This document shows positions 10,201 to 50,260 of a stretch of DNA of 64,000 nucleotides, piece after piece. The notes beneath the pieces are model-generated. The model saw nothing but the letters and a program-made list of their open reading frames with translations, had not been told where the DNA came from and ran no database searches. The stretch's first letter is position 1, and each line of letters begins with the position of its first letter. Origin of the DNA: Botryllus schlosseri (Eukaryota). A program made the position numbers and the translations under genes. The stretch spans positions 3,722,001 to 3,786,000 of the forward strand of contig CM119371.1 of NCBI GenBank assembly GCA_051294905.1. Direction: 5' to 3'.

Positions 10201-13200
10201 TAAAATCCCGAAGGAAATTGAAAATTAAAGTACAGTGACAACAAAAAATCTTCAATTTTAGCAGCGAAAAAATGACTTATAAAATTATCACAAGCTGTAA
10301 GCTTACTATTCCCTACAAAATTATCGCATCTTCAAAACGCTCATAATTACGTCATGAGCTACAGCTTGGCGATACTACACTGCGGGGTGATCGCTACACG
10401 TGCCTAGCGTTGCGTGAAGTCAGTGAAATGAGCGAACGTTCAATCCAATCAAAAGTATGGACTCGTTATCAAACTTGAATCAACTTGCTATCCAACCTTG
10501 ATGTGACCTTCAATCTGGTAACCACTTATCTTGATGACATCTTCTTCGTTCTTCAATTCAACCCATCCATCTACAGACAGCTCGACAACCTGAATATTGT
10601 TCGGATGTGAAACTCGAGATCGTGCATTTTATTGATCATCCACCATATATGGTGACGTCATATCGCAGATGCAGTGACTACCGAAGCATCACAGATCATC
10701 ATGCGTTACACGTCATCGACACAGGTCACTGATTTCACCGGCGTTTTTGTCAGTGGCGCCATTTTGGGACATTTGCTACTCGATATCTCCGCAAACACTC
10801 GTTTATATGAGGCATGAATTATATTGGCGACATCAGGAGAAAAAAACTCCACGAATCGAGGCAAAGACATTTTGGTCAATCTAGTTGATCTTTAAAGCAA
10901 ATCGTTAGCACCCAAAACCGTATTCCTGTATTAACACGAATTCACGATGGAATTTCGTCTTTTGATCCGAGCGCGAAATTGGACAGTTTCCTAGTGTGAG
11001 CATGTAAATCAGAATTACTCCATGGACATCATATTTACTCCTATATTACATGAGAAACAAAATGTTGCATTCCAAAACGCTGTTATGTTCATAAAGATCT
11101 TTTTCGATGCACCCTTTGTTGATAAGGACCGGTATATTTATATGTTGCGTGCCGGTAATGTCCACATGCGCACTCCAGAATTGTGACGATGCTAGCAATG
11201 TTACTTGTTACTCACGCAGTGCATTTTTTAGCGGCACATGGCGTTTGATTCCGTAAAAGGGACATAATTTGTCAAAATATTGATGCACAACTTGATCACC
11301 GCTAGACTGACGGGTATCGATCACACCAATACCAAATTCCATACATTGCATTCATTTCATTCATTCTCAATTCAGTAAAAAGCGTTGTTCACGAGGTCAG
11401 CGCTCCTATTGTTGCCACTACGCTACATGATCCCGCGTTTCACCAAATTCGATTACATAGCTCGATATTAATGGCACAGTGCGTATATTAAAACATCATA
11501 TCAGTGGGTAAATACTGTACGGCTTAGGGATGAAAGCAGAGTGGGACTGTTAGAAAATATTCTTCAGAATTCACTGGCTATGTGATAAAATTGTTAGGTT
11601 GGTTGAAACAACGCTGTAAACCAAATTTTGCTACAAGACAAACTAGTAGAAACAAGATTCTTGCTGTAAAAAGTTTTGAATTTATAATTTAAAAAAAATT
11701 CAAAGTTTTTCTTTCAACCCCATAAAATTGTTAGGCAATCAGCAGTGATGATGCATACCAAATTTGGATCAATTCCAACAGCTAGGAGCGAAGTTATTGC
11801 CGTAGTAAAATTTCCAATTCCATGAGTTTATAGGAAATAATTATAGCTTTCAATACAACATCCATTGTAGTACAATATTTAAACTCAAATACTTTCCGGC
11901 ACTCTAAAGGGATTTAAATGGATTTAGAAGCAAAAACAAATCTGTTTAACTCCCTTCAGTGTGCCGTTAACTCTTGAAAGAGGCAACAAAAAAGTCTTCG
12001 AGTTTAATAAATATTCTACTACAATGGATTTTGTATTGAAAGCTATATTCAAGTTCTGTACCACGAGTCAGCTATCTGAATAAATAATTAAAGAGTTAGC
12101 AACCGTAAAAATATTTTATTCGAGTCCAAATTTTTTCTACCGCAATAACGTCGCTTCTAGTGGTTGGAATTGAGCCACATTTGGTGTGCATCGTCTCTAC
12201 TGGCAGCCCAACAATTTTACATTGTTGAAAGAAAAATTTTAAAATTGTAACTTTTAATTACAAATCCAAAATTTTCTACTGCAAGAAAATCGCATCTACT
12301 GGTTGCAATTGACCCAAAGTTGGCCTGCAGTGTTGTTTTCGCCAACCTGACAATTTTATAACATAGCCGAATAAACCAATCACATGCGATTGTCACGTCA
12401 CAAGTCTCCGCATACCCACATAAAATTATAGTGGCTTGTTAGTATTCAACTAAATCATAGAACCGATCTCACTTCCCAATCCAATTTTCCAGGTAGCGAT
12501 TCAATCCGACGATGTCCGATAAGTGAACGCAGTGCTGTTGCTGACAACTTATTTTCACGCAAATCCACTTCCTTCACCTGGAATGATGAATGAAATATGA
12601 ATACAATGTCTGCCAATGTCATGTCAAACTAAAAAAGCTTTACACAGACTTATCCAGGGCATATTTTGGAAGCTGCGTATGTTCAACATCATTGTGATCC
12701 TTATAATTAAGGCAAACGACCCTAGGTTTAGAGGTCTTTTACTAATCCATTCAAACGGCTTCAATAAATTCTAGGAATACACCGTACTCTATAATTGAAA
12801 TTACGATTTGATTACAGTGAATGATGGCTAATTTTATTCACTTTCGATTTCATTTTTACGAGCGAGTTGGCCACAGTAGGATCAACTGTAATTTGTAATT
12901 GAGCTGCATGTAATTAATTATATTTTTTCATGTTATTTTAATTGTCATCGAAGCATTTCTATTCTGTGTAATTGTAATTGTAATTTGATAAAAATTTTCT
13001 AATTACAATTTCAATTGCATTGTTATTGAAACCTGACAATCACAGCATAAAATAATTAGCCCATTAACATGGGGGTTCTATGCGTATCTCGTCAACTAAT
13101 TCAGCCATAGCCTACTAAACTGTTTCCCATATAAGCCAACTTCAGCTCCAACAGAAAACTTGGTGAATTACAATATAGGCTATTGAACCAAAAAAATCCT

Positions 13201-16200
13201 ACTATTTCATAAATGGACGAAAAGCAAATGAACTCTTCTGTAACCTGTGCTGAACCATTTCCTACACCACGGTCAGCGTTTTTTTTTAATCTCTTTGCAG
13301 TGCTGAGGCTTGCTGTAGCAATTGCAAAAAGAAATTCAAGTTTTCAACCAAGACTTCATCACGCTAGATCACACATTTGCAGATATGTTATCCCAATCTT
13401 ACCTCCTATCTTAGCTTAATTTACTGGGGCCAGAACCTTTCCGCATCCTAATGTTCATCAAATGCAGTCGAACAGTTTTGAGCAAGTGAAAATGTAAGTG
13501 CGAACCAAAATTTTGTATTTGGTAGTTATCAGGAGCTTCTTTACTCGTGTATTTATTTTAATTTTACACACCTTATCGGTATCATCCTTATTGCCTTACC
13601 AATTACATTTCATTCACCTTACTCAGCTCTGAGTATTCGTTTGAGTACATTTCATTGAAGTCTTGTATCCTATTCGCTATTTGTCGTTGCCAGTTGCTCG
13701 AACTTTTGATTGTTAGTAGTCGCTTATAAAAATATTCTGTGTTTTGTATTTTTCAGTGCTCATGATTAGGAAATTTCGAATACGTCCAAGTTTATTTTTT
13801 TCTAATAAAAGGATAATCTACGTAGTACAAATCATGAATGAAACATGAATAGCTTGAGATTGTTGCTAAATACGTCGCTACAGTTGTCAAAGAACACCTC
13901 TCTAGTCTCTACTGAATCAGTCAGACTTTTACCAGTAATTGTAATGATAATTGTACTTACATGTTTAACAGTAATTGTAATTGTAGTCAGGGTTTTAAAA
14001 AGACTCGAGTTACGATTTTCTGATGACTCGACTTGACACGAGTCATTTTCGCAAAATTCGGAAATGACTCATCACAACTCTAGTCAATCTGTGTATTGAC
14101 TCGACTTGAACTCGAGTCATTACGCATGACTCGAACCAAGTCATATGACTCGAGACTGAGACGGCCAAGATCGACATCTCATTGTAATTTCAAATAATAG
14201 TAAAGTGACCACACTATTGGCATTTCGTCTATTGGTACTAGTACTTAAAATGCGACCAGAAACTGCTACGAATGAGGAAAATTACTATATTAACATGCCA
14301 ACCATTCGATATCAACAACTGGGTTACCAAGACTTTAACTGGAAGCTGAGCCGTCGACACAATGACTTGGACTCGAGTCATAATACCATGACTCGGACTC
14401 CACCCTTTGATTGCTGGCATGGACTCGGTCGTGAATTGAAAATGACTCGATTTGACTTGAATCAAAACTATGAAAATGAGATTAACTTGTTACTCGGAGC
14501 CTTCGTGACTAGGTTACAACCCTGATTGTAGTTGTAATTTGATATTTTTAGCATAGAGTAATTGTAATCATATGTAATTAAAACATGTAATAAAGTAATT
14601 GTAATTGAAATCGAATTGATTTAATGCAATTGATCCAACTATGGAGGTCGCCCTATATTTAAATTAATACAAAGTGTACTAAATACCGCCAATAAAAAAT
14701 TTCAGTGGCATAAATCTGCTATTATTTGGAAAAGAGTTTGAGCGTACTTCAAGCCTTAAAAATTATGGACTTTGAGGTATATATTAATATTTTTATCCAG
14801 ATACAACGTGAACAGTTAAATTTCGAACATGTCCCGGAAAATCCAGTCGTAAGGCAATCCTAATAACTTGAGAATTTCGGACAATCAACAGGAGCAATGT
14901 TTTTCTGATGTAACGATGCGTTCGGATAATACCCACACCGCCCTGCGATGATCTAAATCAGTGATGGCGAAGAAAACGAATGTTGAGAAATATTCATAGG
15001 CCAAATTATACCCACTCTAGTGGCAAAATGTGCGCACCAAGTCCACAGGTTTGTGTAAAAATGCATCGCAAAGTAGTTCTTCATTGAAGCGAAAACGCAA
15101 TGCAAAATCGTTATATACTGGTCACCCGGAGATTAAAAAAGTGACAAAATATGGTTTTAATATCTGTTTTCGCAGCGCTACGTCATTTTTGGGTCAAACG
15201 GTCCCTGGCCCCAACAGAAACCTGAAACGGGATACAATTTTGATGAACCAAATTTCAACGTCACTGTTTATAGTTAAATCTATCTTATTCCGCACAACGT
15301 ATAGTCAGGGCTAACACCAGATCAGACCTAAAACAATGAGATAGCGTAGAAGCATACCAACTTATACCATCATTGGGGTGACTGCTGCAGCTGTTTATAG
15401 GCTATATCTATTAAACTCGCAAATTGTACTTTTGCCAAATTGATTGCTTGGGAATAAAAGTGTTACTAGATTAGAACTCACATGATCTGACAAATAATGT
15501 ACCATATTATTATGAACACCGGCTTCGTGATTAAGTAGTACAGTGACAAAAAGGGCATTAGAATTTGAATTAACATTTTGGAATAATTTGACTGGACAAG
15601 TCCACGAGCTATTCTAACGTTTGAATCCGGCCAACTACCAAGGTTGAGTTTGACACCCCTGTTCAATATCCTACCCTCTTATCGAGATGATTTTATTTGG
15701 ACGCCGGCATTAAATGGGAAATATGTCTAAAGATGGAAAAACTAGTATTCGATACACGATGCGATTTAAGTTGAAGGATAGGCTACTGCTTTTTTTCACT
15801 ATTAGTATACTGCTGGAAGTCACGCTAGTTATAATAGACGACCGTGAACTCACATGTTGATTACACGGTCCGTGGACATGGTACTCATTCGGGCCAGACA
15901 TGCGACTTACAATATACCTTCCGAGTGGCATATAAATTCAGTGGTGTTTTGTGCCTAAACTCACATGTATTCTTTTTTTCAGACACCCCGTAATGATCGT
16001 CAATAGCTCATCATTTATCTTGCAGATGAATAACTTCAAGCACTTCAGGCTTTCACTTCTTGCTGCAAGCGATCCAACGATATGAGCCTCATCGCGACTC
16101 AATGAGATCTCAGATGCATTGATTTCGGAAATTTGTTTCATAAGATCGCTGTCTCCTGATTCATAGATTGCTGTATAGAGTTCCATGCGAGCGTGCTTGT

Positions 16201-17370
16201 CCTCCTTGAGATGTGAACGAATCGATCCGACGAGAAATCGCTTTTTCAGCGACCGATTTGACACTGTTAGACAAATATTACACCTCACTATACGATATTA
16301 CAATGGAGTAAAGAGGAACCACAGAGGCACAGCCAAGCGGTAGAGTTGAAGGCATATTTGCCCACAAATGTTTGACTCGTACGCCCGTTTTCACAACGAC
16401 GCAGTGAATCCAAGACGTTATGTCATTGTAGTAGACTATAGAACCTAGAGTTGCATTGTTAAAATTTCCAATCACCCGTTGCAGATTTTTCGGCTGCTTA
16501 CGCGACTAATTTACGCTTACTGACTGAATATGAAACAGTTATGACTGGATTGATCTATTACAGCATTGTCTTGGGATAATAGCGCGACAAAGCACAGATT
16601 CAATAAGCTCATTGGATCCGTGCCCACCATACGGTCATGCGTTTACGATTGATTATTCCCACAATATTCAAAACAGTGGTACGAAGTAGTATACGAAGGT
16701 ACGCACGCTATCAGAAATGACATTTCTGTGAGGTCTTGATAAAACTACAGCATTGTCACCAAATCCAATGTGGTTGGTATGACCAAAAATATTAAATAAT
16801 GGCCATGTTATGGACACAGTACTGTTTTTGTGGCTTTGCGTATCATACGGTCAGTGGTGGTGTCATGGGTCATGCTCGCATACTCCACTGGTCTTATAAC
16901 AAATCTAATGACAGTAGAGGTCGGCCGATATTGATTTATGCAGGCCGGTACCGATTATCGACACACTCGAAAGGCCGACAACCGATATCATAGGCCGATA
17001 TTAATATGGAAGGAGCAGGGAACCATTTCGTTAAAAATATTATATATCAAGCATGATGGCATTTGTCCATGCCACAGAAAGCTGAACAACAAACGAGAAA
17101 AATGAAATTAGAATGAAATATTGCTCGATGGTGCCCATTCATTGATATTTGGGGTAACCTGGCCAGCAAAACATGATACAGAATTGCTGATCAGCCAAGT
17201 AGAGGTAGCTTGTAATTTGGGGAAGCATACTTTGCCTGCATACTCACTGCTCAGTGCTCACCCAGTTAAACTCGTGCTGCAAGGTTAAATCTGTCACGTA
17301 TCGCCTTTGATGGTGCCGATTTCTCGAGATTGGAAACACGGAGCATTGAATTTTCAATATTTTTGAATAT

Positions 17371-17401
<31 letters not shown>

Positions 17402-20400
17402 TATTCGTCAACCATGAAATATAGTAAAGGCAAACATTCACGTCCAATAGTATACATTTTTTTAAATTTTCCTAACTATAATTTACACGGTATAGACTGG
17501 GAGACCCGATATGACCGAAGTCTTCTAGGCCGGAGTCACCCAAGCATATTTGCAGTATTAATTATAATATGGATCAATTTCTTCTCTCAGTCAAGTAGCA
17601 CCGCAAAGAGTAACGAAATAAACAAAAGTAAATAAAATATATATATATAAAATATGGTACCCGATCCCAGCATTTCATGGGCTGATATCGATAATCAGGA
17701 AGGTTCCAAATATCGGCCTCGATATCCGGTCAGGTTTATAATCGGTCGACCTCTAACTAATAGATTCGAAACTCCAGTCGTTACGCTGGAATCCACAATG
17801 CTGAGCATGTCAATAATAGCATAATTATTACTAGTGGCGACCAGAGTGTTAAAATCATTAAAACTGAATTTAATCGAAAACAGATTTTGAAAATATCAAT
17901 TAAAGTTTGATCAGAGTAATGAAACCACCCCTAAATAGCACTGAAAGGTCATGAAATCGGCATTGTTCGAACAATCGGACCGCCACAGCACAATGACGAC
18001 AACAATGGTCAAATGCGTCGCGCGACCGTTTTGAACAACGAGGGATCACGATTAGTAATCAAAAATTGGACTCAAAGCCTGACACTCAGTTCAGAATTGA
18101 ATCACTCCGATACTTGATATATGATCAGACCACACTCGCATCTAGGGACAAATGTGTGCTTTCTCACAGATTCATATTTTCAGTCTTGAGAGTAGCGGGA
18201 ATACGATAACTTTTCGAGAAAAGTAGCCAACATCACGGAAAACTATACTCTCCGATGAGACTCACCTTCATGAAGGTTATCCTGTGTTTCGTCGTAAATG
18301 ATGCCGCACACGAATCTGCGGACGACCGACCATCGCTCTTTGTGCAAGTGTTTAGAGTTGAACCTTATGAACTTTGGAAGCGTCATTTCCACTACAAAGC
18401 CCGCTGCAAGAAATTCCTGGAGACTTTGATGACAGAAGAAGAAAATGAAACTGCCATCCATCAGATTGCAATTGAGGAAGTTATTTCCGGATCCGGGAAC
18501 CTTCATCATGAGATCTCGAACTTCTTCTTTTGAAAGTCCAAACTTCTTCAAATCATTTTCAGAGAATGTCACTCTTCCTTCTTTCATGCCACGATATGCC
18601 ATCGCTTTCAATTTATTGATAACTCCGGCGATAGCATCAGACGTTCTAATATTTTTCACGCTGCTTAAAGTGGATATAATTTTCTTGTAGAGTACTGTGA
18701 CCGTCTTAGGAGGAGGCTCGTTCGGATTCTTGGCCATGATCACTGCGGTTAAAACCAGAAAAACGGGAATGGAAACTAAATTGATCAGTCTTGGTGACAT
18801 CTTTTCTATCTTTTCCCATGCTTCATCACCGTTTTGACGTATCAGAAACACAAAAAGCTTCTTTGCGTCATCCAGGGTCAGACCAGATAGTGTGATAATG
18901 TCGGCAGGTCGCGCTTCCGCGGGTAAATCCGAGACTTGGAATTCCCGGGAAGAGATGACGATTTTTGTATCACCGAGTAGATTACGTGAGAGAATATTGT
19001 ACATGATCGTTGCTGCTTCAGCTTGAGTATATGGATTTATGTTCTTGTCGCCATCTCTGTTGATTTTCCACGTAGCCTGATCCAAGCCGTCGAAAAATAG
19101 TACTGCTTCTGATTGATGTTCGAACAGCCACTGATACGCATGATCCTCGTCGATCTCATTCTGAAAGAGGCCACCGAAGAGAAATTTGGATGGTTTGATC
19201 AATCCTTCATCTCGCATGTCTTTTATTTCTATATAACATATCAATTTGTACTTGAGCAGAGAGGGGCTGACTATGCCTTCCGTATTTGTAAGTGAATGGG
19301 CTAAATTTTCTCTAGCGATTCTGCGCATGAGAGTGGTTTTCCCAGATCCCGCAGACGCAACTATAGCGGTGATAGAACTTTCCCCGGTAATAAGTTGTTG
19401 CAAAACTTCATTTAGCTTGATGAATTTGTTGTCGTCAACTTCTTGTCGGAGAAATCCGAATTCCTTTCTGAATTGATTTTTGACAACCTCTTTCTCTTTC
19501 CAGAAGAATAATTTTCTTTTCACTTCGACTTCCATTCCGTGCACCTCTTCATAATTGCCTTTGAAATATTCCGACTTAGTGACTCTTCTCATCTGGGGAT
19601 GTACTTGGAAATCAGGTTTGCTGAGATCGTCGGCGCCGATGTCTTCGAGGATTCTGTCCGCCGTCTTTTTAGACGCATTATCGTTTATGCATTTTATCAG
19701 GGTTGAAGCTTTTTCTGGAAGATAACAATATCCTTTCTTCATTATATTTTATGAATAGAAATGATCGGACAAAAGCTGTTACCGCTTTTTGGTGATATTT
19801 TATATGACCTAGGACCTAGGTATTCAAGAAAGATGTGGAGATTTATACTGTGAATATTGCAGAATTTAGAGGGGCACCGGCGTTCTCAACCTTTGTTCAG
19901 CCAATATTCCGGTTTTAAAACTTCATGTGGCTTATCCTAGAGTCCTGGTCCTGTTCAGTGCGCGGTAATCGCCGCCGCGGATATGCCTATTTGTCTAAAA
20001 TATGTGCATTTATCTCTTACTAATCATATTTAAATTTATACCTCTATACCAAGATTGATCCACCTGCCGGCGTTAAACAAATTTTGTGCGGTTTACAAGC
20101 AACTCAATTAGTATGTGTTGGCGGCCGTCGACATGCAAATTGAATAGACTGGCTAATTTTTGAAAGATTTCAATCATTCATTTTCAATTCATTTATCGCG
20201 TCAACGACAGGCCTGAACAATCGCATAAATAGCACGCCATGTGCGCAAGATATAATCGCTGGCCTAAACACTATAGTCGCATTTCCAACAGACCTGGTGC
20301 CAGTGTTGGGATCAAGTCACTACCTTCGAGTCACGAGTCATTTCGAGTCATTGCACATTTTGACTCGAGTCAAGTCAAGTCAATCGGTTTTCGAAGGTGA

Positions 20401-23400
20401 TTCGAGTCAAGTCAAGTCACTCGATTTTTGGAAGTGACTCGAGTCAAGTCGAGTCAAGTCACGAGTCCAGTCAAAATTCAAGTCAAGTTGCCTTTTCGTA
20501 GTATGAGGCAATATTACGTAATTACATTAGGCTAGCTGTCTGAAATGCAGATTGAGTAGTCATTGATTTTGAACCGATGAACGAATATAGAGTTGAATAT
20601 ACACCAAAGAAGGCTCTGTATTGCTCAGACGCTCGCATATACGTAGCCTCAGTTTATAGTTACCAACCAACATACAGAATAGAGAAAGGAATTATTAAGA
20701 TGCAATACATTACCCTTTACCCATTTACATATTGATATGAAACAATTCGAGCCTGCTCCAATGGCTGAGGAGTATATAAACTATATTCGAATTCAAAATA
20801 ATAAAAATACAAGAGGTTTGGTTACGGTAGATAATTTTCTATTATATTACTTTACTACTAGTTTACCACAACGTAAGCTGTGAGCTTCGATCACTTCGTT
20901 TGTGGTCAATTTATTTGTGAGATAACAATGGAGGCTCAGTAAAACGCACGATCATTGAATGATTGGTCGCTCTCACGGGTTACACCAGCGTCTCGCGAAC
21001 AATCCGAACATAAACAAGATATTGTGATTTTTATCGACACCGATTAATTGATGACTTGAAATTGACTCATGAATTTTGCTCTGAGTCACGAGTCAATCCT
21101 CATTTCTGATACGCCGAGTCAAGTCAAGTCATATTAGCAAAGTGACTCGAGTCAAGTCAAGTCATGCGAAAAAGGTGACTCGAGTCAAGTCATGACTCGA
21201 GTCATTCCAACACTGCCTGGTGCGCACAACGCTATCGTTTGCTTGAGCAATCACATCTATAATAGGCCTCATGCACAAGATATCGTCGCTGGCCTGAACT
21301 ATCGCGTCTCGGGCCTCGCAGGCTTTGGCTGTTATCTACTATCGTTTTGAGACAATGCCGTTAAGTGTATTATGATTAGCTATGGTTGTTCAACAGTACA
21401 GTGACATCGCAAAACAGAATGAAATCGAATACAAAAACATAACTATTCATATACTGCGAATGCGGGATGCGTACTATACATGGGTACAGGCTTTTTACCA
21501 GAATTTACACGCCATTATATTCGGAAAATGTGGTAGTAGCGCCATTTTTCAGCTAAGCCCCACAGTACAGATCGGAACAAAATCGGAAAATGATGCACCC
21601 CATATAGAGAAACCAAATTGGAATCATCTGTTTATAACAGGGGTTCTCAACCTGGGGGGCGCGAGAAATTGACAAAGTCAGTATAAATTGTACGTGTCTG
21701 AACATGTGTTTCACATCCATTATGAGAAGACGATTAATGAAGATGAAATTTATTCCATATTCAAGAAAGCTTGCAAAATACAAACTCTAGCAACCGCGCT
21801 CAACGGAGTATAGTCTGATTTCAACTTCATTTGAGCAAATTTTTGAAATTCTTTGGAGATATAGACAGCAATTCCCACGTGTAAGTCATTCATTGCTTCA
21901 GTAGCCTAAAGCTTGTCGCGCTGGGCAGCTCTTGTTAGTAGCTTGCGAACTGCACTGCCTAAGACAGACTTAGATGCAACATAGGTTGCCCGGTTTCGCC
22001 CAATTAGGCTATAAATCAACACAATTTAATTAATTTCCAAAACTGATCAAATTTAGCCTGGCAGGACAGAACGACGCCTTGCTCGCTGTACTCACTACCA
22101 GCATCAGGATTAGTCTCAGGGTGACCTACCTTGAAATTAATTAATGAATGTCTTGTTCCATTTTTGTTATTTTCAAACAAGTTTGGAGAAATTTGTCAGC
22201 AATGTAAAAGACTCAACAAGTGAAAGGCAGATTCAAAACTGGCGTAAGATATACCTTATGTATAATACTACTAGATCAGTGGTGGGCAGCCTGTGGCCGT
22301 ATAAGGGAATTTGAGCGGCCGTCGACGCCTAATTCAATTAGTATGTGTTGGCGGCCGTATACATGCAAATTGCAATTACGAAGTCACTCCCGCATTTTCG
22401 AGAGATTTTAATTAATCTTGAGATTTCCTTCGCCCTCCGCGCAATTCAACAAGACTTCATTTTTCAATTTTAATGCAGTAGCGCCCTTCTTAATCTGAGC
22501 CAGAATGGGAATTGGCAAGAAATAACAATTGGTTCACGGCCCTGAAAAATTTTCGCGCTCCGCGCAACAAATGCACCTCCCGGCAACTATTCATAACATT
22601 TTCACTCGCGATTTCGGTGCGTACAATAGGCCGATGTGAAAAGTAGAATAGTCCGGAGTTCACCGGGAATGGATATGGACAGTTTACCGTAGGAATTTTG
22701 CGTCCATATCGTTCATTGCGGCTATGCCCAGGAATGCGGTCTCACGCTACATAATCAATCGAAATGCGGCCATTATTATCGGAAACGTTGCCCACCTCTG
22801 TATTAGATGATGTGCTCTTTTTGACATGACGATAAATGCAACGGGGGTCAGGGGGGCGCGATTTTTCTGACCATCTCCAAGGGGGGCGCGTGTCAAAAAA
22901 GGTTGAGAACCACTGGTTTATAACGAATGAAATTTGTTTCTGGTACGTTTTGGCGATTCCAATATATTTCCACTCCAGCGACAATCGTAATGGAATGTAA
23001 AGAAATAACAGCATGCAACTAAGTGACTGATAAAAATTGGCCCATGCGAAGATCCATCATCACTTATAACTTGCCCTAAATTTTTGAAAACACCTCCTCC
23101 ATCAACTCTACCGGTTAATATGAGCACACGGGCTGAGAAAAAATGAATGTGAATAGGAATATGACAAATTTCTAATAATAATGAGAAAATTCATAACTAA
23201 ATCTTAAAATTTCTGTGTGACGATGACTATCCCAGCCTTACATGACCACTGACCAGTCACCACTCACGATTTCGGTGTTTATAGTAAGCAGATATGTGTG
23301 AATGTTTTTGTCCTGAGGTCACCGGAAATAGATACCGAACCATTTTAACATTCCAGTAGGCTATAGATAGGCCTATATCATGTCCAGTTCATAACGACCA

Positions 23401-26400
23401 TGCCCTTGTATGAGGCCATAGTGTATGGGTACATTAGGCATAGGCGGGTGCCTATCAGCGGGAAGTGTTGTGCTATTTAGCGAGATTCGTTTTCGCTGCA
23501 CAACGGCAAGCGATCTCTTGCTGAGTGGGTTTGCAATTTTTACGCGAACAAAATCAGGTCATTGATTGCTGTACATGCGCGATCCTCGCAGGCCTGATTT
23601 ATCACGTGAACAACAGGCCGGAAGAATTGCATCTACAGCAGTCCAGGTGTACAAAATATCATAGCTGGCCTAAACAGTCACATCTGCAACAGCCCGGTCA
23701 CGCACTAAACATCGTTGTTAGTCTGAAAACTATCGCATCTCGGGCCTCGCAGGCTTTATCTGCTTTATACAATCGTTTGGAGATAATGCCGTTTAAGTCC
23801 AGAGCCAATGATTAGCGATGGTTTCGCCATGATGGTGCAGCAGTGACGTCACAAAATAGAATGACATCATATCGCCGCGAGCATACTATAATGTGCGTAA
23901 TCTATTTCCGGTAATACTAAAACACAACCATCGCTGGTAACTTGTCATACATGTAAGTTCGTCAAAACAGGAAGCTTTTATAACGAGCATATACTCATTT
24001 GCTATGCATGCACTGTACAGTAGTTGCTCTCAATCTTCTTGACCTCACGGACTGGTAAAACTTCAAAAAATGTTGAGGACGGTCATACTTCAAAAATCGA
24101 AATTAACTCTAAATTCAATCAGGGTACTGGTACGACAATTGTATACAGCTCTGCCAACTTACATGTGCTATTGAAAACTACATTCAATATTGTTGTTTTG
24201 ATATTGGATATTTATACATGAACATTTTCGAGTTTCTGCTCGGTTAAGCTAGCGAAGTCCTGTTAAAAACCACTTGGTTGTGATTGTTGGCTTTTCTCCG
24301 AAAGATATTGCTATATGCTATTCCAGTGTTTATTAACCTTGTCGCCAGCACGCCCAACGGGCGTTTTGGATTTTGAAGGGGGAGGAAACGCTGAGGGGGA
24401 CAAGATGGGGGTTGCTGGGCTCAGGAAAGCGTAAGGGGGGCCCTGAAGAGAGTGCAGTAGCGACATAGTAGAACAACATTTCCATATATCCCCAAGTTCT
24501 CATTGTAAATTAGCATTCGACAAAATCTGTAACATCTCGAAATTTTTCCTCGCACTGCGCGCGACATACATGCTGGCCTTGTTTGCAACATGTTTCCATG
24601 TATGCAGTGATCTATAATCATTAGGGCAAGTTTTGTTGCACTAAAATCGCCGAAAGCAGCCTAATTTTATCAAAGGTTACAGTAAAAAGGTGCATTTATA
24701 ATTTTTGTTCAAGTATTAGGGTATGAGATAGTCAAAAGGGACCGTTGTATAACTTAGTTCCTCCAGAGCTGACAAATTTGTTACTTCGTCATCTAACTGT
24801 CTGACGAAACCGCCGAAAATTACATTTTTCACGGCAAACAGCAATTAAGAAAATCAAGCAATCCGGGAATAATTTCCCCCCAAAAGCCAACAGCATAGCG
24901 ATTACCCCCTCCCCCTATAACAAGTCAAATAACACACCCCAAAACCTTTCGGTCTGCAAGCTTGACCCAAGCCATTACTAAAAAAACTCACTCCTGGCGA
25001 CTTCATCAAAATCAATAGGCTCTAGCCTGAAAAAGGTGACCCAGGGTAAATGTAATTTTCAGCGGTCTCGCCTTGGCGTTCGTGAAATGGGAAATTATTG
25101 TAAATTTTGACGAGAGAATTAATACAGTAATCTATTTCCATATCGTTCGGTCACGGTCGTGCTAGGCAGGGGTAGTTGAACAATGAACATGCTAGCATGC
25201 CATTGTGGCATAGATAACAGTGAGACGCAGCTAACCAGTCAGATAGCTCTTTGTTATGCAAATCAATGAGAATAGAGCCATACTAGAAGTTGTTTATAGC
25301 ATGTTTTTAAATCACTCCTTTACATTTTTACGCAATAGTTGATCAAAGTTACGGTAAAAATTAGCATGAAATATAGAAAAAAGTTGCAGAAAGTTGCACT
25401 ATAAAATCCTTTCAAACAGCTTAAAACATTATAGTACATAGATTCCGAGATTTCAAGTATTAGAAATGGACCTTCACAATTTGAGAACTTGACATAAGTC
25501 ACTTTGATTCCACGGCGACGATATATTTCCGATATTGACCGTGCCTACTGTCTCCTCTGCTAAGCAATCAACGAATTATGTACCCACCATTGCAAAGCGA
25601 TATCAATTTTCTATAAGCCGTTTCTTAGCTGTACCGTACTAATTAGACATGATTTTCATTGCAAGATGATGATAATCCTACCTATTACCGTGGTAGCATC
25701 TTTATCGGCAGGCAGCTGTATCATTCAACAAATTGACAACTGACAGCCTATAACACGTTTTCGCATTATGATGCCACACACAACGCCACTTGATTGAAAA
25801 CTCAGGACACCTTAATCAAAGCCTCGACTAACTAGCAGTAACCATAGGGCGTGACCTTTTCCAACTTTCCGCGTTGCGATTAGCAGTATTGATTCACATG
25901 ATTGCCATTTTCTGGATCAACAAACTTTCTTATCTTCGCCCTAAGATCGCTAATTCCCGTTAAAATACTACCATCATCATACTACCATCACTTTACCTCG
26001 GGTTAATTTCTACAAAATGCTTTGAAATAAGTATTTTATACCGCAGCGAATAACGTGTTGACATTGAAGAAAGAGGCACTGCCCCACTTTTGAAAGTGAG
26101 AGTGAGAGCCATTTGTACATTGAAGATGCTTCAAATCTCTTTGGTCAAAATGATTAAATAAATATATTTGTATATGATAGTTACAAAATTAAATCTTCAG
26201 AATATTTCTTCATCGTATCATCAAGGATGATACTCTTTAGTGTTGCGCAACCTAACATGATGTTTTTATGAAATGGGTTGCTTTGATCGGAATACCATCA
26301 TGTTGAAGTTGATGGGCCAGATGGTATGAGCCCGTACCCTATGGTTGTTACGACAACCTAGATTTGATCCCGAATATAGCACATACAATTATCATAGCGT

Positions 26401-29400
26401 TAATTGGTCGAGTGGTCGTCGGGCAAGACAGCTATTTCCAATAGTGAAGTCACATAACCCAAAAATAATGACCCAACTTCGAACTCTTACCCTTCGTTTT
26501 TACTGCCGTCCTAGAAATACGGGGACGCCAGACACAGGCAATTTTCGAAAGGGCGCTGCAGGATAAAAAGTTGAGAACCACTGTAGGCTACTATAGCCTC
26601 TACCATGTGTCACTTCTGTTTAAAAGTCTGTTTAAAAGTAGCTTTCACATATAATCTGTCCGAAACGCGTTGTAAGCTACTTTTGAATAGCCCCATACCA
26701 CACTCGCATGAACACCCGAAAAATACAGCTAATTTGTTATTACAACCCAGTGCAAAATACGTCGTAAACCCCAAGCTTCTTTCATTTTTAAATTCAGATA
26801 AAAAATTTAATATATTTGGTGGACCAGCACTGGTGAGATCCACTGCTGTACCGTAGGGCTCTTCAAAAATGAATTTTTTCTCAAATCGCACTGGCTACTT
26901 GATAAAACTGTTAGGTTACCTTATTTAAGCCTACACGTAAAATTTGGTTCAATTCCAAGCAGTAGCCGCATTGCTACAGGAGAACAAAGTTTCTATTTAT
27001 TATATAGGCTAAAAATAAATAACAAAAAATTTGAGAATTTTCTGTTCACCCCATGAAAGTGTTAGGTTGTCTGTAGAAACAATGTTCACCAAATTGGGTT
27101 CAATTCCAACCAGTGGAAGCGGAGTTATTGCCATCGAAAAATTTGGATTGTAATAAAGTAGTATTTACGGTGGGCGCCATTATAATTAATAATTAAATAA
27201 CTATCACCTTTTCCACTGTCTAAAGTTAGCCCATTCTGATAAAATATGATAGGGTAACTTTGGACATCATATTTTCTTATACTGATCGAAGATTGAGCCC
27301 ACTGAGATTTTTGCCGTGGATTAAGACTGAGGTATCTACAGCCGAGTTTTGAATCTATGACTAACATGCCATCTATGATTGGTTGAAAGAAATTCAATGA
27401 CCATTAATTTTGATGAAATTGACCACCACCGTTAATTTATCAATGTTGGGTCAAGTTTATCTCGTGACACGACACATCCAAGATATATGCAGTTTCGGTC
27501 AACATGTGACTTCACGAAGTGTGCTAGAAAAAAGCCATTGGCTGAGGCTTTGTGCATGTATCCATTGTCCATACCCGCGCTGGATGGGCGTGAAGAATCT
27601 TGTCTTGCTACTAATCAGTAAGGGCGATTTTTTGACATGTCAAAAAAGTCAAAATTAGGTCAAAATTGTAGCGTTTGGTCAAAAAATGTCAAAATTGTTG
27701 TCAAAAAAAAATATTTGCAACCTGCATTTCGTTTGTGTCGTAGATTTTGCACTGTCTATGAACTTATCATTTTACATTTTACAGCTTGTAGCCCACTTCA
27801 TAGGCCTACCGTTGTAGACGGCCCGTTGTCTGCTCATTGTGAATTATGAACATTCAAATTAAACGTGGTTGACGTGCTGTTATGCTTAATGTACCGCAAT
27901 ATCCTAAGTGAAGCAAGACTCCATAGGCATTGCATGGTTTTTATATCAAGAAGCGTATTGTGAAAAGTTGTGATGTCCACGATTGTCAGAATGAAGCAAC
28001 ACGGTGTTCTACCCGCAGTGTACGCACAACATCGGTGTTGTCAGCCAACAGCTGCTACAGTTAAACATTTTCTCTCCATTCTTGGCAAGCTACTTATTAA
28101 GGATAGACACTTTCTACTAGGGATGGTGTGAACCTCTGAAAGGTTCAGGTTCGTGTGAACGTGAACCTTTTTGAAAGGTTCTGTGTGAACACGAACGTGA
28201 ACCTCATGACGTCACGTGACGTCATATTGCTAATTTAAACCCCAAATTTCAATTAGGTGATTGCCTATATTAATCTACTGTACACGATACTGAGCGACGA
28301 CTCGCGGCCACATAATAGCTCAGTACTTAAGTACATATTCACGTTTGAAACGTCGCCAAATGAATCAACTGGGGCAATCAAATGATATAATAATCCCATA
28401 AAATCAGTATCTTGCGTCGCTTTGCTAACAATTTTGACCTGATCGGACAATGTATTCGGCGTCCGAGTATTGCCACATGGATATTGAGCAGAGTGTAAAA
28501 TGGGTTTCTATACTTGCTACCGATCAACAAGTTATACAGCAGTATAGCCAACACCCCAGTCGCACGAATTTGGTTTTTATGATACAGTATACATATGTAG
28601 TCAAGATTGACCCCGTACGCCTGCTGAATTTTTACATCAGAAGACGATATCAATCTCATTGATTGGTTGAATAAGGATCATTTGCTGACAAAATACAGTG
28701 TATTTCGCTCTTGATGTCATGTGATTGCGGGTCAAGCTCACAGCACAGAGACACTAATTGTGCACAAACGGAAGGCTGGATATTTCGAGCAAACTCTTGC
28801 AACAATACGAGTAAATTTTTGAGATTGTCAAGGGCATGCTCGTTTAGAGTTGAATGTTTATGCTGCCATCCCCTTGCATAGAGTGGCCCGCAGTTGAAAG
28901 TCAATAAATTTGGACCAAGGATGTTATAATGAAGTGAAAATTGCAATATCTGAAAAAGGTTCACAGTGCAGAACCTACCAAGGTTCTGTTGTGAACGCGA
29001 ACCTCAAATTTTCCGAGGTTCACACACAGAACACGAACGTGAACCTCACGTTCACACCATCCCTACTTTCTACCCGAGAATGTAGGAAAGTATCTTCGTT
29101 GTACTCCAACAAATTCGGATTATTTCTACCATATTACGTAATGTAACCACTGGAATTCTTAATAGGGCCAGATTTCATTCAAATAAAATAAATGTAATGT
29201 AAAAATTTTGTCACATATTGAGTCAAAAAGGTTTTTGAGGGCAAACTACTTCGTAAGGACAGACAGTTCGAACTAGAAATGATGATAAGTAGTACAATTC
29301 TAAACACCTAATTAGCATAAATTACGTCGAAATTTGGTTTATATAGGTAAACAAATGTCAAAATTTATATTTTTAGGTAAAAAAAATCGTCCTACTAATA

Positions 29401-30075
29401 AGCTTCCCACTATGTAAATGACACATGAGCCGTCCACAGAGGAAAATGATGCGCCCCGTGAAAAAATGACAATTTGTGCGTGCTTCTCAAAAATTATTTA
29501 TTTTACTTTTCCTGTAGGTTACTACGTTTGGGTGGCGTGATTAAGAAGCAATCGTAATCGCAATCGATTACATTCATGACGTAATCACGCCATGTCTGAC
29601 AGGCTGCACTACAAAGTTCCTGGTAAAACACTTACGTTGGTCTGTTGGAATTGCTTCAATTTCAGAATGCATGGTGTAGTTGTTGGTGATCTTGTTCACG
29701 GTAATCTGATCTCCCGCCACAACGTTAACCGAGCTGTTTATGATCCGTTGATTGACGTTTTCGCCTACTGCCAAACTTGCTGATTCTGAGACGCGCGAGA
29801 ATATTGTAATAGTTCCGATGCATACTCATTTGTAAGCATTTGCATATCAAATTGCGATCATGGAAACTTCCCAGAATGTCTTACTAGTACTAGATTATGC
29901 AGCGCGCTAATAACATTATATTTCAATGACTTTAACATGATTTTATATGGATAATATTGAGGAAATAAATAGGAACTCAAATAGACAAGTATAATCACTT
30001 ACTGCTTTCCCCGGCTGATAATGATGAAGGCAAAACTGGGTCACCAGAATTTCGATATTCACCCCCTTCCGCCAT
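4011..30075 (-). CDS. Multi-exon NLR (NACHT) gene, about 928 aa. Exons: 30075-30003, 29785-29636, 19714-18266, 16263-15965, 12577-12473, 10589-10497, 9028-8882, 6687-6607, 6474-6307, 4232-4011
   Basis: All junctions are GT-AG and phase-compatible (1,1,1,0,0,0,0,0,0). Exon lengths sum to 2787 nt = 929 codons including the stop, with no internal stop. Starts MAEGGEY and ends SLFGCIVS*. The distal 3' exons are less certain than the core, and further small exons could have been missed. Confidence 0.7.
4623..6211. mobile_element. Non-autonomous DNA transposon with about 450-480 bp TIRs, TA-flanked
   Basis: 4623-5106 is the diverged reverse complement of 5763-6211; TA on both flanks; solo TIR copy at about 58278-58620. 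Confidence 0.85.
6307..6474 (-). CDS. Probable NLR exon 9 (LDLLDIVVNG...ACQQKK)
   Basis: T-rich tract then ttttag| acceptor; donor AAG|GTAGTG; 168 nt, phase 0. Confidence 0.65.
6607..6687 (-). CDS. Probable NLR exon 8 (ISKIVLDCTEEENIDWSMIETCWEKYQ)
   Basis: Acceptor gttcag|, donor |GTATGA; 81 nt, phase 0. Confidence 0.6.
7513..7803. mobile_element. hAT-type MITE (TAGGGTTACC family)
   Basis: TAGGGTT...GGTAACCCTA termini; tgtaaaa repeated on both flanks; AGAGGAC motifs shared with 45261-45700. Confidence 0.65.
8882..9028 (-). CDS. Probable NLR exon 7 (DSTLSFKTV...SEYKVKK); alternative in-frame acceptor at 9079
   Basis: Acceptor tttattttcgcag|, protein-like ORF, donor AAG|GTCTGC. Confidence 0.55.
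10497..10589 (-). CDS. Probable NLR exon 6 (VVELSVDGWVELKNEEDVIKISGYQIEGHIK)
   Basis: Acceptor attcag|, open frame, weaker donor AAG|GTTGGA; 93 nt. Confidence 0.55.
11576..12368. mobile_element. Palindromic (foldback) MITE
   Basis: Left half is the diverged reverse complement of the right half; shares the aaatttggntcaattccaac motif with the 4623 family. Confidence 0.8.
12473..12577 (-). CDS. NLR exon 5: RI-type LRR (VKEVDLRENKLSATALRSL...)
   Basis: LxxLxLxxNxL-like pattern; acceptor tccag|, donor |GTGAGA; 105 nt, phase 0. Confidence 0.8.
13988..14524. mobile_element. hAT MITE (GACTCGAG-rich) inserted in an older GTAATT-rich element
   Basis: CAGGGTT...AACCCTG termini; perfect TSD attgtagt. 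Confidence 0.88.
15965..16263 (-). CDS. NLR exon 4: HD2 and first LRR-like repeats
   Basis: ELYTAIYES...LKCLKLFICKINDELLTII; acceptor ctaacag| in phase 1, donor CAT|GTGAGT. Confidence 0.88.
16915..17755. mobile_element. hAT MITE (CCGATA-rich subterminal repeats) containing a (GA)n tract
   Basis: TAGAGGTCGGCCGAT...ATCGGTCGACCTCTA; degenerate TSD. Confidence 0.75.
18266..19714 (-). CDS. NLR exon 3: NACHT NTPase, HD1, winged helix and start of HD2
   Basis: Walker A ASAGSGKTT, Walker B LFFDGLDQ, sensor ISSRE, SIPVFL, WHD motif FFCHQSLQEFLAA; acceptor ttatcttccag|, donor G|GTGAGT. Confidence 0.95.
20301..21215. mobile_element. hAT MITE (GAGTCAAGTC subterminal repeats)
   Basis: CAGTGTTGG...CCAACACTG; perfect TSD cctggtgc; sister copy at 43389-44307. 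Confidence 0.92.
21638..22915. mobile_element. hAT (Charlie-like) non-autonomous element
   Basis: CAGGGGTTCTCAACC...GGTTGAGAACCACTG; perfect TSD gtttataa. Confidence 0.9.
28118..29065. mobile_element. hAT MITE (GTGAAC subterminal repeats)
   Basis: TAGGGATGGTGTGAAC...GTTCACACCATCCCTA; perfect TSD ctttctac. Confidence 0.92.
29636..29785 (-). CDS. NLR exon 2, RHIM-like N/V/I-rich segment (SASLAVGENVNQRIINSSVNVVAGDQITVNKITNNYTMHSEIEAIPTDQ)
   Basis: Acceptor tctcag|, donor C|GTAAGT, 150 nt, phase 1-1; joins in frame to the NACHT exon. Confidence 0.75.
30003..30075 (-). CDS. NLR exon 1 (MAEGGEYRNSGDPVLPSSLSAGES)
   Basis: atcATGG start context; strong donor A|GTAAGT in phase 1, matching the next exon. 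Confidence 0.7.
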
Positions 30076-30694
30076 GATAACAATCACGCAATGTTAAATA
30101 GTTGCTGTATCAGACAATACTAAAATTGCAAGGACAGTCAATTAACAGCCTAAAATATTTGAGAAATTTATTTGAATAGCGCGTCGAGAATAAAGGACTC
30201 AATTCGAGTACTCTGATTCAGGAGCTGTTAACATCCAAAATTTGGAACACACAATAACCATGTGAACAAATAGGATTGGTGTAACAAAATACAAGAATTA
30301 TGCTCGCGGCGCTCAGCTTAATTTCTGGCCGTTTCAAGACGTGATACAGTAAATAAAAGAAATTTATCCCACAAACATAAATTCACAGTTTATCATTTCC
30401 CAGGAATGCTCAGCCGCCTAGCGTGCCGAATACTGCATCACATGACGTCTGACGAGACAAACCAACGGAACCCAGTTTAGACCCACTTTTTCAACTTCAC
30501 ATCACAAAAAATGCAAAACTTGTACCATTCAAAGGATGAATCGTTAGAAAAAACTATCGAGACAAAATCCACGTGGTGACCAGTAGCATGGAACAAAAAT
30601 TTTCATGAGGAGGGTGGCGGAATGAGGAGGGTGGCGGCCACCCCATACAATACGATTAAACGCCCGCCGTCTGCGATTGCAAAAGTAGTATATG

Positions 30695-31200
30695 TGGTCG
30701 GTCGTGACTTGGTGTTTTTTGCATGGGGTAGTATAGGCCCCGCTGGTGAGGTGCCGCGAAACTCGTGGTGGCACATCGTACTTTTTGACCCCCCCCTCTC
30801 GGTCGCACATCGTAATGCGTTCTTATGGGTGCGCTCGCACATCGTACTTTCAGGTATAGGCATCTGTCGCACATCGTATTGAAAACTCGTGTTGGCACAT
30901 CGTACTTTTAGGTATAGGCATCTGTCGCACGTCGTACTTTCGCATGTCGTATTTCTCGTATAGGCAGTGGTGGTGACTCGCCATGTGTTCTTATGGGTGC
31001 GGTCGTGATTCGCCTTTTCAGGTATAGGCCGCGGTCGTGATTCGCCGTGAAAACTCGTGGTCGTGACTCGCCTTTTTTGCTATAGGCGGTGGCGGTGATT
31101 CGCCTGTCATGTATTCTTACGGGATCTGTGGTGACTCGCCATATGTTCTTATGGGTGCGGTCGTGAATCGCCCTTTCGGGTATAGGCATCTCTCGCACTG
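30695..31200. repeat. Composite tandem repeat array (gcacatcgtact and gtcgtgactcgcc units)
   Basis: About 25-32 bp units with recurring modules ggtataggc, ttcttatgggtgcg and gaaaactcgt. Confidence 0.85.
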
Positions 31201-44329: not shown

Positions 44330-44541
44330 CTGGGGCTTCTCGAGGGGTAGGTCGTGGGTTCGATCCCCGGCCGAGTCATACCAAAGACTCGAAAATTTGT
44401 ATCCGCAGCTATTGCTAGGCGCTCAGCAACCACGGATAGCATGGAGGAGAAAAGAAACGGGGGCGCAGACTATAGATGACCTCACGGCCGTATCGCAACT
44501 CCGTCAAAGTATCTCGATGGTGCTAGGCGAGAATGAATATC
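44330..44541 (+). mobile_element. tRNA-derived SINE
   Basis: Pol III B-box GGGTTCGATCCCC followed by gagtcataccaaagact body and a simple-repeat tail; A-box not clear. Confidence 0.7.
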
Positions 44542-44677
<136 letters not shown>

Positions 44678-45260
44678 GACGAGGATGATGATTACAGCAG
44701 CTTCATCCGTCTCATTATTAACTGTGTAGAAAAACTTTCGTTTTATAATTCGACTCCAATGAAGACAAATGGAATTCACCTACCGAATCGTTGGGCGAGG
44801 CCGTTCACAATTACATTTGTGTGCCTTGCAGTCGAATTTTATCAGAATACACCAACGAAAACTATGTCAACAAAAGGAGTTCGTGTACCACCTAAAACTA
44901 GTACATTGAACGCTCTCTCATTCACGAAATTTCATGCTGGTGATGTCATATTTTGTGATTCGATTGTTGATATAAAATGTTCTTTCCAATTCTCTACTAG
45001 TTGCTGACGATTACCCCTGACGAGTGTCTGCCGAAAATATTCGGGTTCATTTCAATATGAATATACTATTCAATTGTATATTGAAGTTCTGTACCTCCAG
45101 GCCGCTCTTTTGATACATTTCGTGAATTTTAAAAAGTCAGCATGTACTTCAGTATGGTGGCATAATGTGGCTTGAGTCGTCGCTAGGTATCGTGTACGTA
45201 GGCACGTTGCATTTGGAACAAACAGTGTTTTAAAACACTTTGTTTAAAACACGTTTTAAA

Positions 45261-48849: not shown

Positions 48850-50139
48850 TTACGGTCTATAGAAATCGGTGGGTTTCCTATTTCTAAGAGGATAACGTCT
48901 GCCCGACGATCGAGCAGGACTAGCTGCAGGACGTTGTGCCCTATTCCTAACCAATGGTTGCTCAGCTTGCGACTGCCGAGGCTGAGCAACTTCCTGTGTG
49001 GCTATATTATTGCCAGCTGAAATCAAGCGTGGTTGGAGTTGGTTTTTGTGCCTTCTCCAATACCCATGATCCGTTTTAACAATGTACACAACACGCCCCA
49101 GTATTTCCGTCACCACGCCAGCAACCCACTTTGGTCCGCTTCGGTAACTGCGAGCGTAAACCGAGGAACCAATCTCGAAATGAGTGACTGATTGTCTAGG
49201 CGTAACGGGTTTCGATTTATCGAAGGGCGAGCACAAACTTAACAAATTGCGCGGCTGTCGACCATGTAAAATCTCGGCAGGCGTTTTCCAGTCTATGCCC
49301 GGGTGCGGTGCACATCGGTAAGTAGCGAGAAGTGTTTGGAGCGCGAAGTTAATATCTTTTCCCCCGTCGCAATTTTTTATCAATCCAGCTTTCAAAGTCT
49401 GGACGAAACGCTCCGCTTCCCCGTTTGATGCAGGGTGAAAAGACGGTGATACGATATGGCTGATTGCCAAATTAGAGCAAAACGTATCGAATTCATTCGA
49501 TGTGAATTGCGGCCCGCCATCCGCGACAATTGTTACGGGCAAGCCTTCAATAGAAAAGACTTCTCGCAAAGCGTTGACAACACACAAGGTTGTGGTAGAT
49601 CCGACATTCATTACTTTAACGAAAGGATATTTCGAATGCGCATCGACGATGACAAGAAACATTTTGTTGTTTATTGGACCTGCGAAATCCAAGTGAATTC
49701 GATCAAAGCTTTCGGAAGTTTTGGGCCATTCGCGATACTGACGATCAGGCGCTTTCATTACCTTACGGCAAGCGTCGCAACTCTTAACGAGATTTTCAAT
49801 GTCGCGATTAATGGAAGGCCATGCGATGTAACGTCGAGCCATCTGCTTCATTTTCGCGATACCCCAATGTCCTTCGTGCAACAATGATAAGACTCGCGAG
49901 CGAAGTGACTGCGGAATTACTACGCGCTGAAAACCATCAATATTGAGCATGACTATGTCTTCGTGCAGAGAAAGCGAATGTTTGCGAGTCGAAAACCAAG
50001 AAAAATCATCAATGTGCGTCTTTGGATTCCAATTACCATGAGTGACAGATAATTTTACTAGTTTCATGGTTTTGTCCTTCAGCGTCGCGTCGCGAATTTC
50101 ATTGCGAGTTAACGGTAAGCCATCGAATGCCAGTAACAA
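48850..50139 (-). CDS. Gypsy LTR retrotransposon pol C-terminus (integrase), 5'-truncated
   Basis: HHCC zinc finger (LHEGHWG...CDAC), D-D-E core (HLDFAGP, VADGGPQF, NGEAERFV), open 429-aa frame. Confidence 0.95.
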   Translation of the reverse strand: MLLAFDGLPLTRNEIRDATLKDKTMKLVKLSVTHGNWNPKTHIDDFSWFSTRKHSLSLHEDIVMLNIDGFQRVVIPQSLRSRVLSLLHEGHWGIAKMKQMARRYIAWPSINRDIENLVKSCDACRKVMKAPDRQYREWPKTSESFDRIHLDFAGPINNKMFLVIVDAHSKYPFVKVMNVGSTTTLCVVNALREVFSIEGLPVTIVADGGPQFTSNEFDTFCSNLAISHIVSPSFHPASNGEAERFVQTLKAGLIKNCDGGKDINFALQTLLATYRCAPHPGIDWKTPAEILHGRQPRNLLSLCSPFDKSKPVTPRQSVTHFEIGSSVYARSYRSGPKWVAGVVTEILGRVVYIVKTDHGYWRRHKNQLQPRLISAGNNIATQEVAQPRQSQAEQPLVRNRAQRPAASPARSSGRRYPLRNRKPTDFYRP

Positions 50140-50140
50140 T

Positions 50141-50260
50141 TGGTGTCAGAAGTCGGATTCATATTTATTTCTGCGACTGAGATACAGCATGGATTCAGGT
50201 ATAATGAAGCTTCTAGAGAAGCAGCAGGAAATGATGGCGAGTCTACATGAAACGATGGGT
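50141..50260 (+). mobile_element. Gypsy primer-binding site (tRNA-Leu type) and gag start, inverted relative to the integrase
   Basis: TGGTGTCAGAAGT PBS preceded by TAACA-AT, then MDSGIMKLLEKQQEMMASLHETMG. Confidence 0.75.

Follow-up and report, generated by a model that had tools for sequence, protein, structure and literature searches.

Does an animal NLR carry, in place of a folded adaptor domain, a short amyloid-like motif at its N-terminus? The question is raised by a gene in a stretch of 64,000 nucleotides (nt) of the Botryllus schlosseri genome (GenBank assembly GCA_051294905.1, contig CM119371.1, positions 3,722,001 to 3,786,000 of the forward strand), which we call the window and to which all coordinates refer. 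The gene lies on the minus strand in AT-rich surroundings (36-44% GC) with many introns and repeats, and is a tunicate-type NLR of the NACHT / NOD2-type winged-helix class. A first-pass annotation had described its only N-terminal module as a RHIM-like, amyloid-like motif. Its description of the architecture is borne out by our analysis: no death-fold domain precedes NACHT, and the N-terminal 75 residues of the spliced model contain an N/V/I-rich, proline-free, beta-prone stretch between P/S/G/acidic linkers. We tentatively propose that this stretch may act as a homotypic beta-assembly (amyloid-like) adaptor that is not a RHIM.

The coding part of exon 1 (30003..30075, minus strand) begins with an ATG at 30075-30073 in good start context (A at -3, G at +4) and runs for 24 codons (MAEGGEYRNSGDPVLPSSLSAGES) and one further base up to the donor GTAAGT. 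An in-frame TAA is located 21 nt 5' of this ATG (30096-30094), with no AG between them, so that no upstream coding exon can join in the frame of exon 1. Intron 1 (29786..30002, minus strand; 217 nt, GT..AG) is followed by exon 2 (29636..29785, minus strand), which is entered and left in phase 1 and contains 49 whole codons (P0002; SASLAVGENVNQRIINSSVNVVAGDQITVNKITNNYTMHSEIEAIPTDQ) besides one split codon at either end. Exon 2 is flanked by an acceptor AG at 29787-29786 (...gcgcgtctcag) and by a donor GT at 29635-29634 within GTAAGT, and sits inside an 83-codon stop-to-stop frame (29574-29825). The interval to which the first-pass annotation had assigned the motif is exactly this one exon with its consensus splice sites, and both of the beta-prone strings it quoted are present among the 49 codons, overlapping by one isoleucine.

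The next same-strand coding exon is exon 3, the NACHT exon (18266..19714, minus strand), within a 501-codon open frame (19748-18243). Its acceptor is strong (tattgttatcttccag, ...ttatcttccag), the exon starts at 19714 in phase 1, matching the end of exon 2, and its donor is GTGAGT. Exon 3 encodes a pre-NACHT region of ~115 residues and then, in the order by which NLRs are recognized, a NACHT domain with a Walker A motif (ASAGSGKT), a winged helix and a helical domain. Pfam models matched NACHT (6.2e-14, 52.6 bits; cut-off 26.7) and NOD2_WH (26.7 bits; cut-off 23.1), with NLRC4_HD2 at 18.3 bits under its cut-off. A proposed exon 4 (15965..16263, minus strand; acceptor ...tctaacag in phase 1, donor GTGAGT in phase 0) would add a post-NACHT helical part (...ELYTAIYESGDSDLMKQISE...); it gave a weak tblastn match to residues 445-542 of Styela P0006 (E 0.2) and by eye resembles the Clavelina stretch DLYACVGEGKDSSIATKAAE. 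When exons 1-4 are joined by coordinates, they give 657 codons without a stop, in which 75 residues precede the NACHT exon and the GSGKT is at residue 197. Downstream, none of 77 minus-strand open reading frames (ORFs) of at least 40 residues matched an LRR, WD40 or TPR repeat family (E<=0.1), a search that short LRR exons could escape; a caspase exon was sought in the window downstream of the NLR and none was found.

The best annotated match of the NACHT exon was Styela clava P0024 (38% identity, 1.4e-75), followed by an NLR family of Clavelina lepadiformis (27-29% identity) and by vertebrate NLRC5 (23-25%, E ~1e-4). Further homologues were 16 ORFs from Logan (33-51% identity). Metagenome contigs searched with the NACHT alignment gave 598 pattern matches and no relative, and the ESM Atlas gave no lead (best feature score 0.81, every entry a 'hypothetical protein').

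We searched for a folded adaptor ahead of NACHT in the upstream sequence, in the putative intron 2 (19715..29635, minus strand; 9,921 nt, full of high-copy repeats) and in a structural model of the pre-NACHT region. In intron 2, no death-fold was detected in 15 minus-strand and 5 plus-strand ORFs of at least 60 residues (E<=1), nor in 84 minus-strand ORFs of 30-59 residues (E<=0.05), giving 0 of 99 on the minus strand. AlphaFold2 modelled exon 3 from a 27-sequence alignment with a mean predicted local distance difference test (pLDDT) score of 77.3 and a predicted template modelling (pTM) score of 0.75; residues 1-110 formed one confident helix (2-16) and low-confidence strands, with no six-helix bundle. 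As the upstream, intron 2 and pre-NACHT searches were all without a death-fold, the statement that the receptor has no CARD, PYD or DD stands, and DED can be added to it. On the 75-residue spliced model, with the exon 2-exon 3 junction as predicted, a short motif at the extreme N-terminus would take the place of a globular effector domain.

The core of this segment consists of 34 residues of exon 2 (29667..29768, minus strand; VGENVNQRIINSSVNVVAGDQITVNKITNNYTMH), with 26% N+Q, 29% V+I, 12% charged residues and no proline. Such a composition is rare: among 25,809 windows of 34 residues, which overlap and come from related proteins (the other eukaryotic proteins of the comparison set), none combined N+Q of at least 26% and V+I of at least 29% with absence of proline. 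The core exceeds chance in composition, not in sequence. AlphaFold2 predicted a beta-hairpin for the exon 2 peptide (residues 26-33 and 36-43, QITVNKIT/YTMHSEIE) at low confidence (mean pLDDT 60.5), which we take to suggest a beta tendency and nothing beyond. A comparison of the peptide with proteins longer than the 27-86-residue class returned 32 word-sharing candidates, none at E<=10.

A short N-terminal motif was also observed in the Clavelina relatives (P0004, P0027-P0044; annotated as 'NACHT domain-containing protein' or 'NLRC5-like'). In 16 of the 19 the protein starts with M(A/T)EQS(T/A)SS..NIT..AVLNQS.VI..A..V.INY.., with 26% N+Q and 26% V+I, close in composition to the exon 2 core; the gene models of 2 more begin later. 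The motif is followed by an S/D/E linker (QPPSTSSSDEDEW), the pre-NACHT region and a Walker A at 135-182, and no death-fold is present. Most of these relatives (17) are 517-758 residues long, and P0004 and P0005 are longer. P0004 (1280 residues) combines in one chain the short N-terminal motif, NACHT and a C-terminal caspase (Peptidase_C14, 2.8e-17). P0005 (1125 residues), likewise from Clavelina lepadiformis, carries within residues 1-450 ~400 residues of Q/P/H/S-rich, 'prion-like' low complexity before NACHT. This region ends, at the position equivalent to the motif, in a Q/N-rich stretch (N+Q 44%).

How might such a segment work? In the mechanism we propose, the N/V/I-rich, proline-free core would stand in for the absent death-fold adaptor. 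Ligand-driven oligomerization through NACHT would gather several N-termini, the gathered motifs could then stack into a cross-beta (amyloid-like) nucleus, and this nucleus may recruit chains with the same or a compatible motif, either NLR paralogues or some effector. The logic would be like that of the amyloid signalling motifs associated with NLRs in fungi and bacteria, and like that of a RHIM-NACHT protein of amphioxus. We favour the amyloid-adaptor reading, as a possibility still short of probable, because of the position of the motif, its extreme composition, the lack of an alternative adaptor, the similar motifs on distant tunicate NLRs (one of them caspase-fused) and the amphioxus precedent. 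If it holds, the motif is lineage-specific and belongs to a different sequence family from RHIM. A wider version is more speculative, and we regard it as rather doubtful: tunicate NLRs would have swapped death-fold adaptors for a lineage-specific, non-RHIM amyloid motif, of which exon 2 and the Clavelina N-termini would be divergent members, with the Clavelina motif linking the sensors to the caspase paralogue P0004.

Several results, set out here and in the next two paragraphs, weigh against an amyloid adaptor, and some of them bear on RHIM kinship. RHIM is defined by a core tetrad (V/I)-Q-(V/I/L/C)-G (PMC9444067). No such tetrad occurs in the 657-residue model or in any of 39 tunicate and Logan family proteins. 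The nearest strings in the model are LAVG, VVAG and VNVV, the first two of which had already been noted as deviating from the canonical tetrad; the strict pattern bears this out. When the exon 2 ORF and peptide were scored against the hidden Markov models of Pfam-A, as the first-pass annotation had recommended for RHIM and amyloid motifs, no family matched at E<=10, HMMER filters dropping most weak matches. The N-termini of five motif-bearing Clavelina proteins likewise matched neither RHIM nor another amyloid-motif family in Pfam-A. Motif-profile and single-peptide searches of the PDB found no RIPK1, RIPK3 or HET-s chain, with one unrelated match at E 0.91. The pattern N.G.Q.G, which we take to represent PP-like motifs, is not in the 657-residue model. 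By Pfam, PDB and pattern, the motif matched none of the described amyloid motif families (HET-s/HRAM, sigma, PP). The suggested kinship with RHIM finds no support in these searches, and a divergent true RHIM, homologous to those of RIPK1, RIPK3, ZBP1, TRIF and amphioxus, is very improbable. By eye, I-I-N-S-S...V-N-V-V-A-G...N-N-Y-T-M does recall I-Y-N-S/C-T/S...(I/V)-Q-(I/V)-G...N-Y-(M/L), and the segment lies before NACHT as in amphioxus BF82280. Against this stand the missing tetrad, the Pfam and PDB results, and a 2025 survey that did not find RHIM-bearing RIPK1 homologues in tunicates (PMC12119088); tunicates had earlier been reported to be without RHIMs (Kajava et al. 2014, PMC4262963).

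The 'two pseudo-repeats' that had been described in exon 2 do not hold up, their score being reached by 305 of 2000 composition-preserving shuffles. In comparisons of exon 2 with the Clavelina motif, the Smith-Waterman score was reached by 60 (P0004), 498 (P0028) and 1417 (P0040) of 2000 shuffles, and with the P0005 stretch by 662 of 2000. The feature common to exon 2 and Clavelina may thus be composition only, and we do not accept homology of the two as established: a MAFFT alignment places them collinearly, but by the shuffles the score is compositional. Among 15 Clavelina paralogues the motif had a mean pairwise identity of 0.887, rank 207 of 493 windows, compared with 0.90 for NACHT and 0.96 for the linker; these paralogues are a recent expansion, and motif identity is uninformative on special constraint. 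A comparable motif was present in none of three Styela relatives, one of which is clearly truncated at the N-terminus.

The first-pass annotation had further suggested that the receptor may nucleate amyloid on a downstream effector, but no effector with the same motif emerged, either in the window or among 1.84 billion representative proteins. Within the window there was no second copy of the motif (best other match E 2.9). A profile of exon 2 and eight Clavelina N-termini, run against the representatives at E<=0.001, gave 14 matches, consisting of 2 truncated NLR-family proteins and 12 long repeat proteins. P0045 is a short Clavelina-type NLR fragment with motif, pre-NACHT region and Walker A. 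P0046 (176 residues), also Clavelina-type, has the N-terminal motif fused directly to the post-NACHT segment, without NACHT; it may represent an isoform, a pseudogene or a small adaptor made of the motif only. The 12 long proteins matched in 3-26 repeated stretches, and 10 of them bear bacterial Ig-like, SWM-repeat or surface-protein domains; we discarded these matches as not meaningful, since in the sequences inspected what aligns is a '..VTVNYT.P'-type strand repeated many times. This negative is weak because the profile draws mostly on Clavelina sequences, a short motif that has diverged falls below significance in a library of this size, and the host's own proteome was not covered.

These results fit about as well with a plainer explanation, in which the first 75 residues have no amyloid role and form either a disordered leader or a short linear or regulatory stretch of an ordinary kind. 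Such a stretch might, for instance, supply a strand that docks intramolecularly on NACHT or a site for a non-amyloid partner, and the protein would then be an 'effector-less' NLR working via the NACHT oligomer or its C-terminal part. The unmatched motif families and missing partner point this way, as do the non-significant conservation to Clavelina, the unremarkable conservation among the Clavelina paralogues, the Styela relatives without a motif, and the low confidence of the AlphaFold2 hairpin. What speaks against a disordered tail is that the composition is extreme against the family sequences and is met again in the corresponding place in the NLR family of a distant tunicate, and that the N-terminus of an NLR is usually its signalling end. 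On balance we rate the disordered tail as nearly as likely as the amyloid adaptor, and neither of the two as probable.

Four sequencing runs were compared with the window over 10400-30300, namely X6, X8, X15 and the bulk RNA run X23, of which ~6% was read. In the survey of runs, 20 of the 24 listed shared part of the window and none shared half its words. The exon 1-exon 2 joint (30003/29785) was observed in one X8 contig (depth 70.1; shorter side 76 letters), which omits exactly the 217-nt intron with CT..AC ends, equal to GT..AG on the gene strand; it was not observed in X23, X6 or X15. X15 record 8 (29733-29901) is an unspliced contig crossing the boundary of exon 2 and intron 1. The kind of run X8 is not on record; its depth pattern resembles RNA, with 152-280 in the bins of the NACHT exon versus 14-15 in the two low-copy bins of the intron that lie closest. 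In X23, depth was low and similar in magnitude over exons 1-2 (1.35 + 0.86) and the NACHT exon (0.9-2.1 + 0.5-1.3). In the intron 2 bins 19696-21687 and 27664-29655, depth reached thousands in X8 and X15.

Of 285 joints, the 15 listed do not include the one between exon 2 and the NACHT exon (29636 to 19714), a further point against an amyloid adaptor on this receptor. The earlier claim that exons 1 and 2 are spliced in frame to the NACHT exon is therefore upheld for the exon 1-exon 2 joint and the compatible phases, whereas the exon 2-exon 3 splice stays putative, resting on phase, orientation and analogy. Conceivably the gene model is wrong, with exons 1 and 2 belonging to another transcript or splicing to a different exon and the 5' end of the NLR differing from our model. 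The 9.9-kb intron would fit this, as would an in-frame ATG located 25 nt upstream of the exon 3 acceptor, and a phase match alone has about a one-in-three chance. However, exon 2 is open to its end with a consensus donor, and the NACHT exon, with its strong acceptor, is the next same-strand coding exon. Moreover, no initiator Met is conserved among the 16 Logan/ENA homologues of the NACHT exon, which become alignable 4-5 residues past the predicted acceptor; the NACHT exon is thus internal across the family, and upstream coding exons are needed. The Clavelina gene models have their elements in the order motif, linker, L.K.CI helix, VHP and NACHT, collinear with the spliced model, and the NYT-to-CI spacing is similar in the two (21-22 residues by manual count), although the alignment alone is not significant (135 of 1000 shuffles). 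Together with the comparable depths, within X23 and within X8, over exons 1-2 and the NACHT exon, these observations make a wrong model unlikely.

An amyloid-type motif on an animal NLR would not in itself be new, and the novelty that had been claimed for it was too strong. Amphioxus Branchiostoma floridae BF82280 was published as a protein of RHIM, NACHT and repeats, and amphioxus RHIMs sit where CARD-related domains usually are (Kajava et al. 2014, PMC4262963). BF82280 shares with our receptor a short non-globular beta motif at the N-terminal place of a death-fold, as well as the proposed proximity-induced amyloid nucleation. In contrast, its motif matched a RHIM profile (p<0.01, PMC4262963), whereas the window motif matches no RHIM model and has no tetrad. 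In mammalian RIPK1, RIPK3, ZBP1 and TRIF, and in the Drosophila cRHIM proteins (PGRP-LC/LE, IMD), a short beta-prone segment of N, S/T and branched hydrophobic residues likewise serves innate immunity, but it is defined by the tetrad that the window motif does not have (PMC9444067), and its bearers are kinases, adaptors and receptors, not NLRs.

The fungal and bacterial motifs (HRAM of NWD2/HET-S, PP of PNT1/HELLP, sigma and BASS) are alike in sitting, as short motifs, at the very N-terminal end of receptors with NACHT or NB-ARC, in being rich in N/Q/G and V/I, and in their unstructured linkers. They differ in recurring on an effector encoded beside the NLR, for which no counterpart was found in the window or the protein library; the window motif has no Pfam match to them, and its host is an animal with multi-exon genes. 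Closer at hand, the Clavelina family resembles the window receptor in having NACHT, a short N/V/I/T-rich N-terminus and no death-fold, but its motif is 16-24% identical to exon 2 (not significant), contains proline and starts at residue 9, and P0004 carries the caspase that was not found in the window. Vertebrate NLRs of the NLRC3/NLRC5/NLRX1 type share NACHT, the NOD2-type winged helix and the helical domain, NLRC5 being the best non-tunicate match. Unlike the window gene, with its 75-residue N-terminus and no LRR detected downstream, they carry extended arrays of LRRs, and their N-terminal domains, though atypical, are folded.

As for tunicates, no description of an amyloid-type motif in their NLRs turned up in the literature searched, in the portions consulted. 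The new part, if the amyloid-adaptor reading is right, would be a non-RHIM motif family in this role in tunicates, which bears on a question raised in PMC7889193 and would answer it. Such an adaptor on a chordate NLR would also show a route for an NLR repertoire to signal without death-fold domains. On the wider, more doubtful version, Metazoa would have a second signalling-amyloid class, located in the vertebrates' sister group, which is reported to be without RHIM and RIPK1. Should the motif be inert, what remains is an ordinary lineage-specific NLR with a short N-terminus. The 34-residue core and the conserved Clavelina N-terminus are short enough to be tested directly as peptides.

Several further elements were observed around the gene. 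Within intron 2 lies a non-autonomous DNA-type transposon of 948 bp (28118-29065), whose terminal inverted repeats of 16 nt are perfect (TAGGGATGGTGTGAAC) and which shows an apparent 8-bp target duplication (CTTTCTAC), hAT-like. Sequences omitting this element (28108->29065) were present in X23 (7 reads), X8 (3 contigs) and X15 (2 contigs), indicating that it is either polymorphic or nested in a repeat with empty copies elsewhere. Degenerate tandem repeats with TCGCACATCGTACTTTCAGGTATAGGCATCTG-like units of 17 nt and ~32 nt occupy 30605-31200, 0.5-1.1 kb upstream of the NLR ATG. An Rfam scan of the window gave 0 matches. Farther away, a 431-codon frame on the minus strand (48850-50145) encodes the integrase part of a long terminal repeat (LTR) retrotransposon, with matches to the integrase zinc-binding domain (4.6e-16) and to the rve core (8.2e-09), and a long CT/GA dinucleotide run at 44400-44700 reads (SL)n in two frames.

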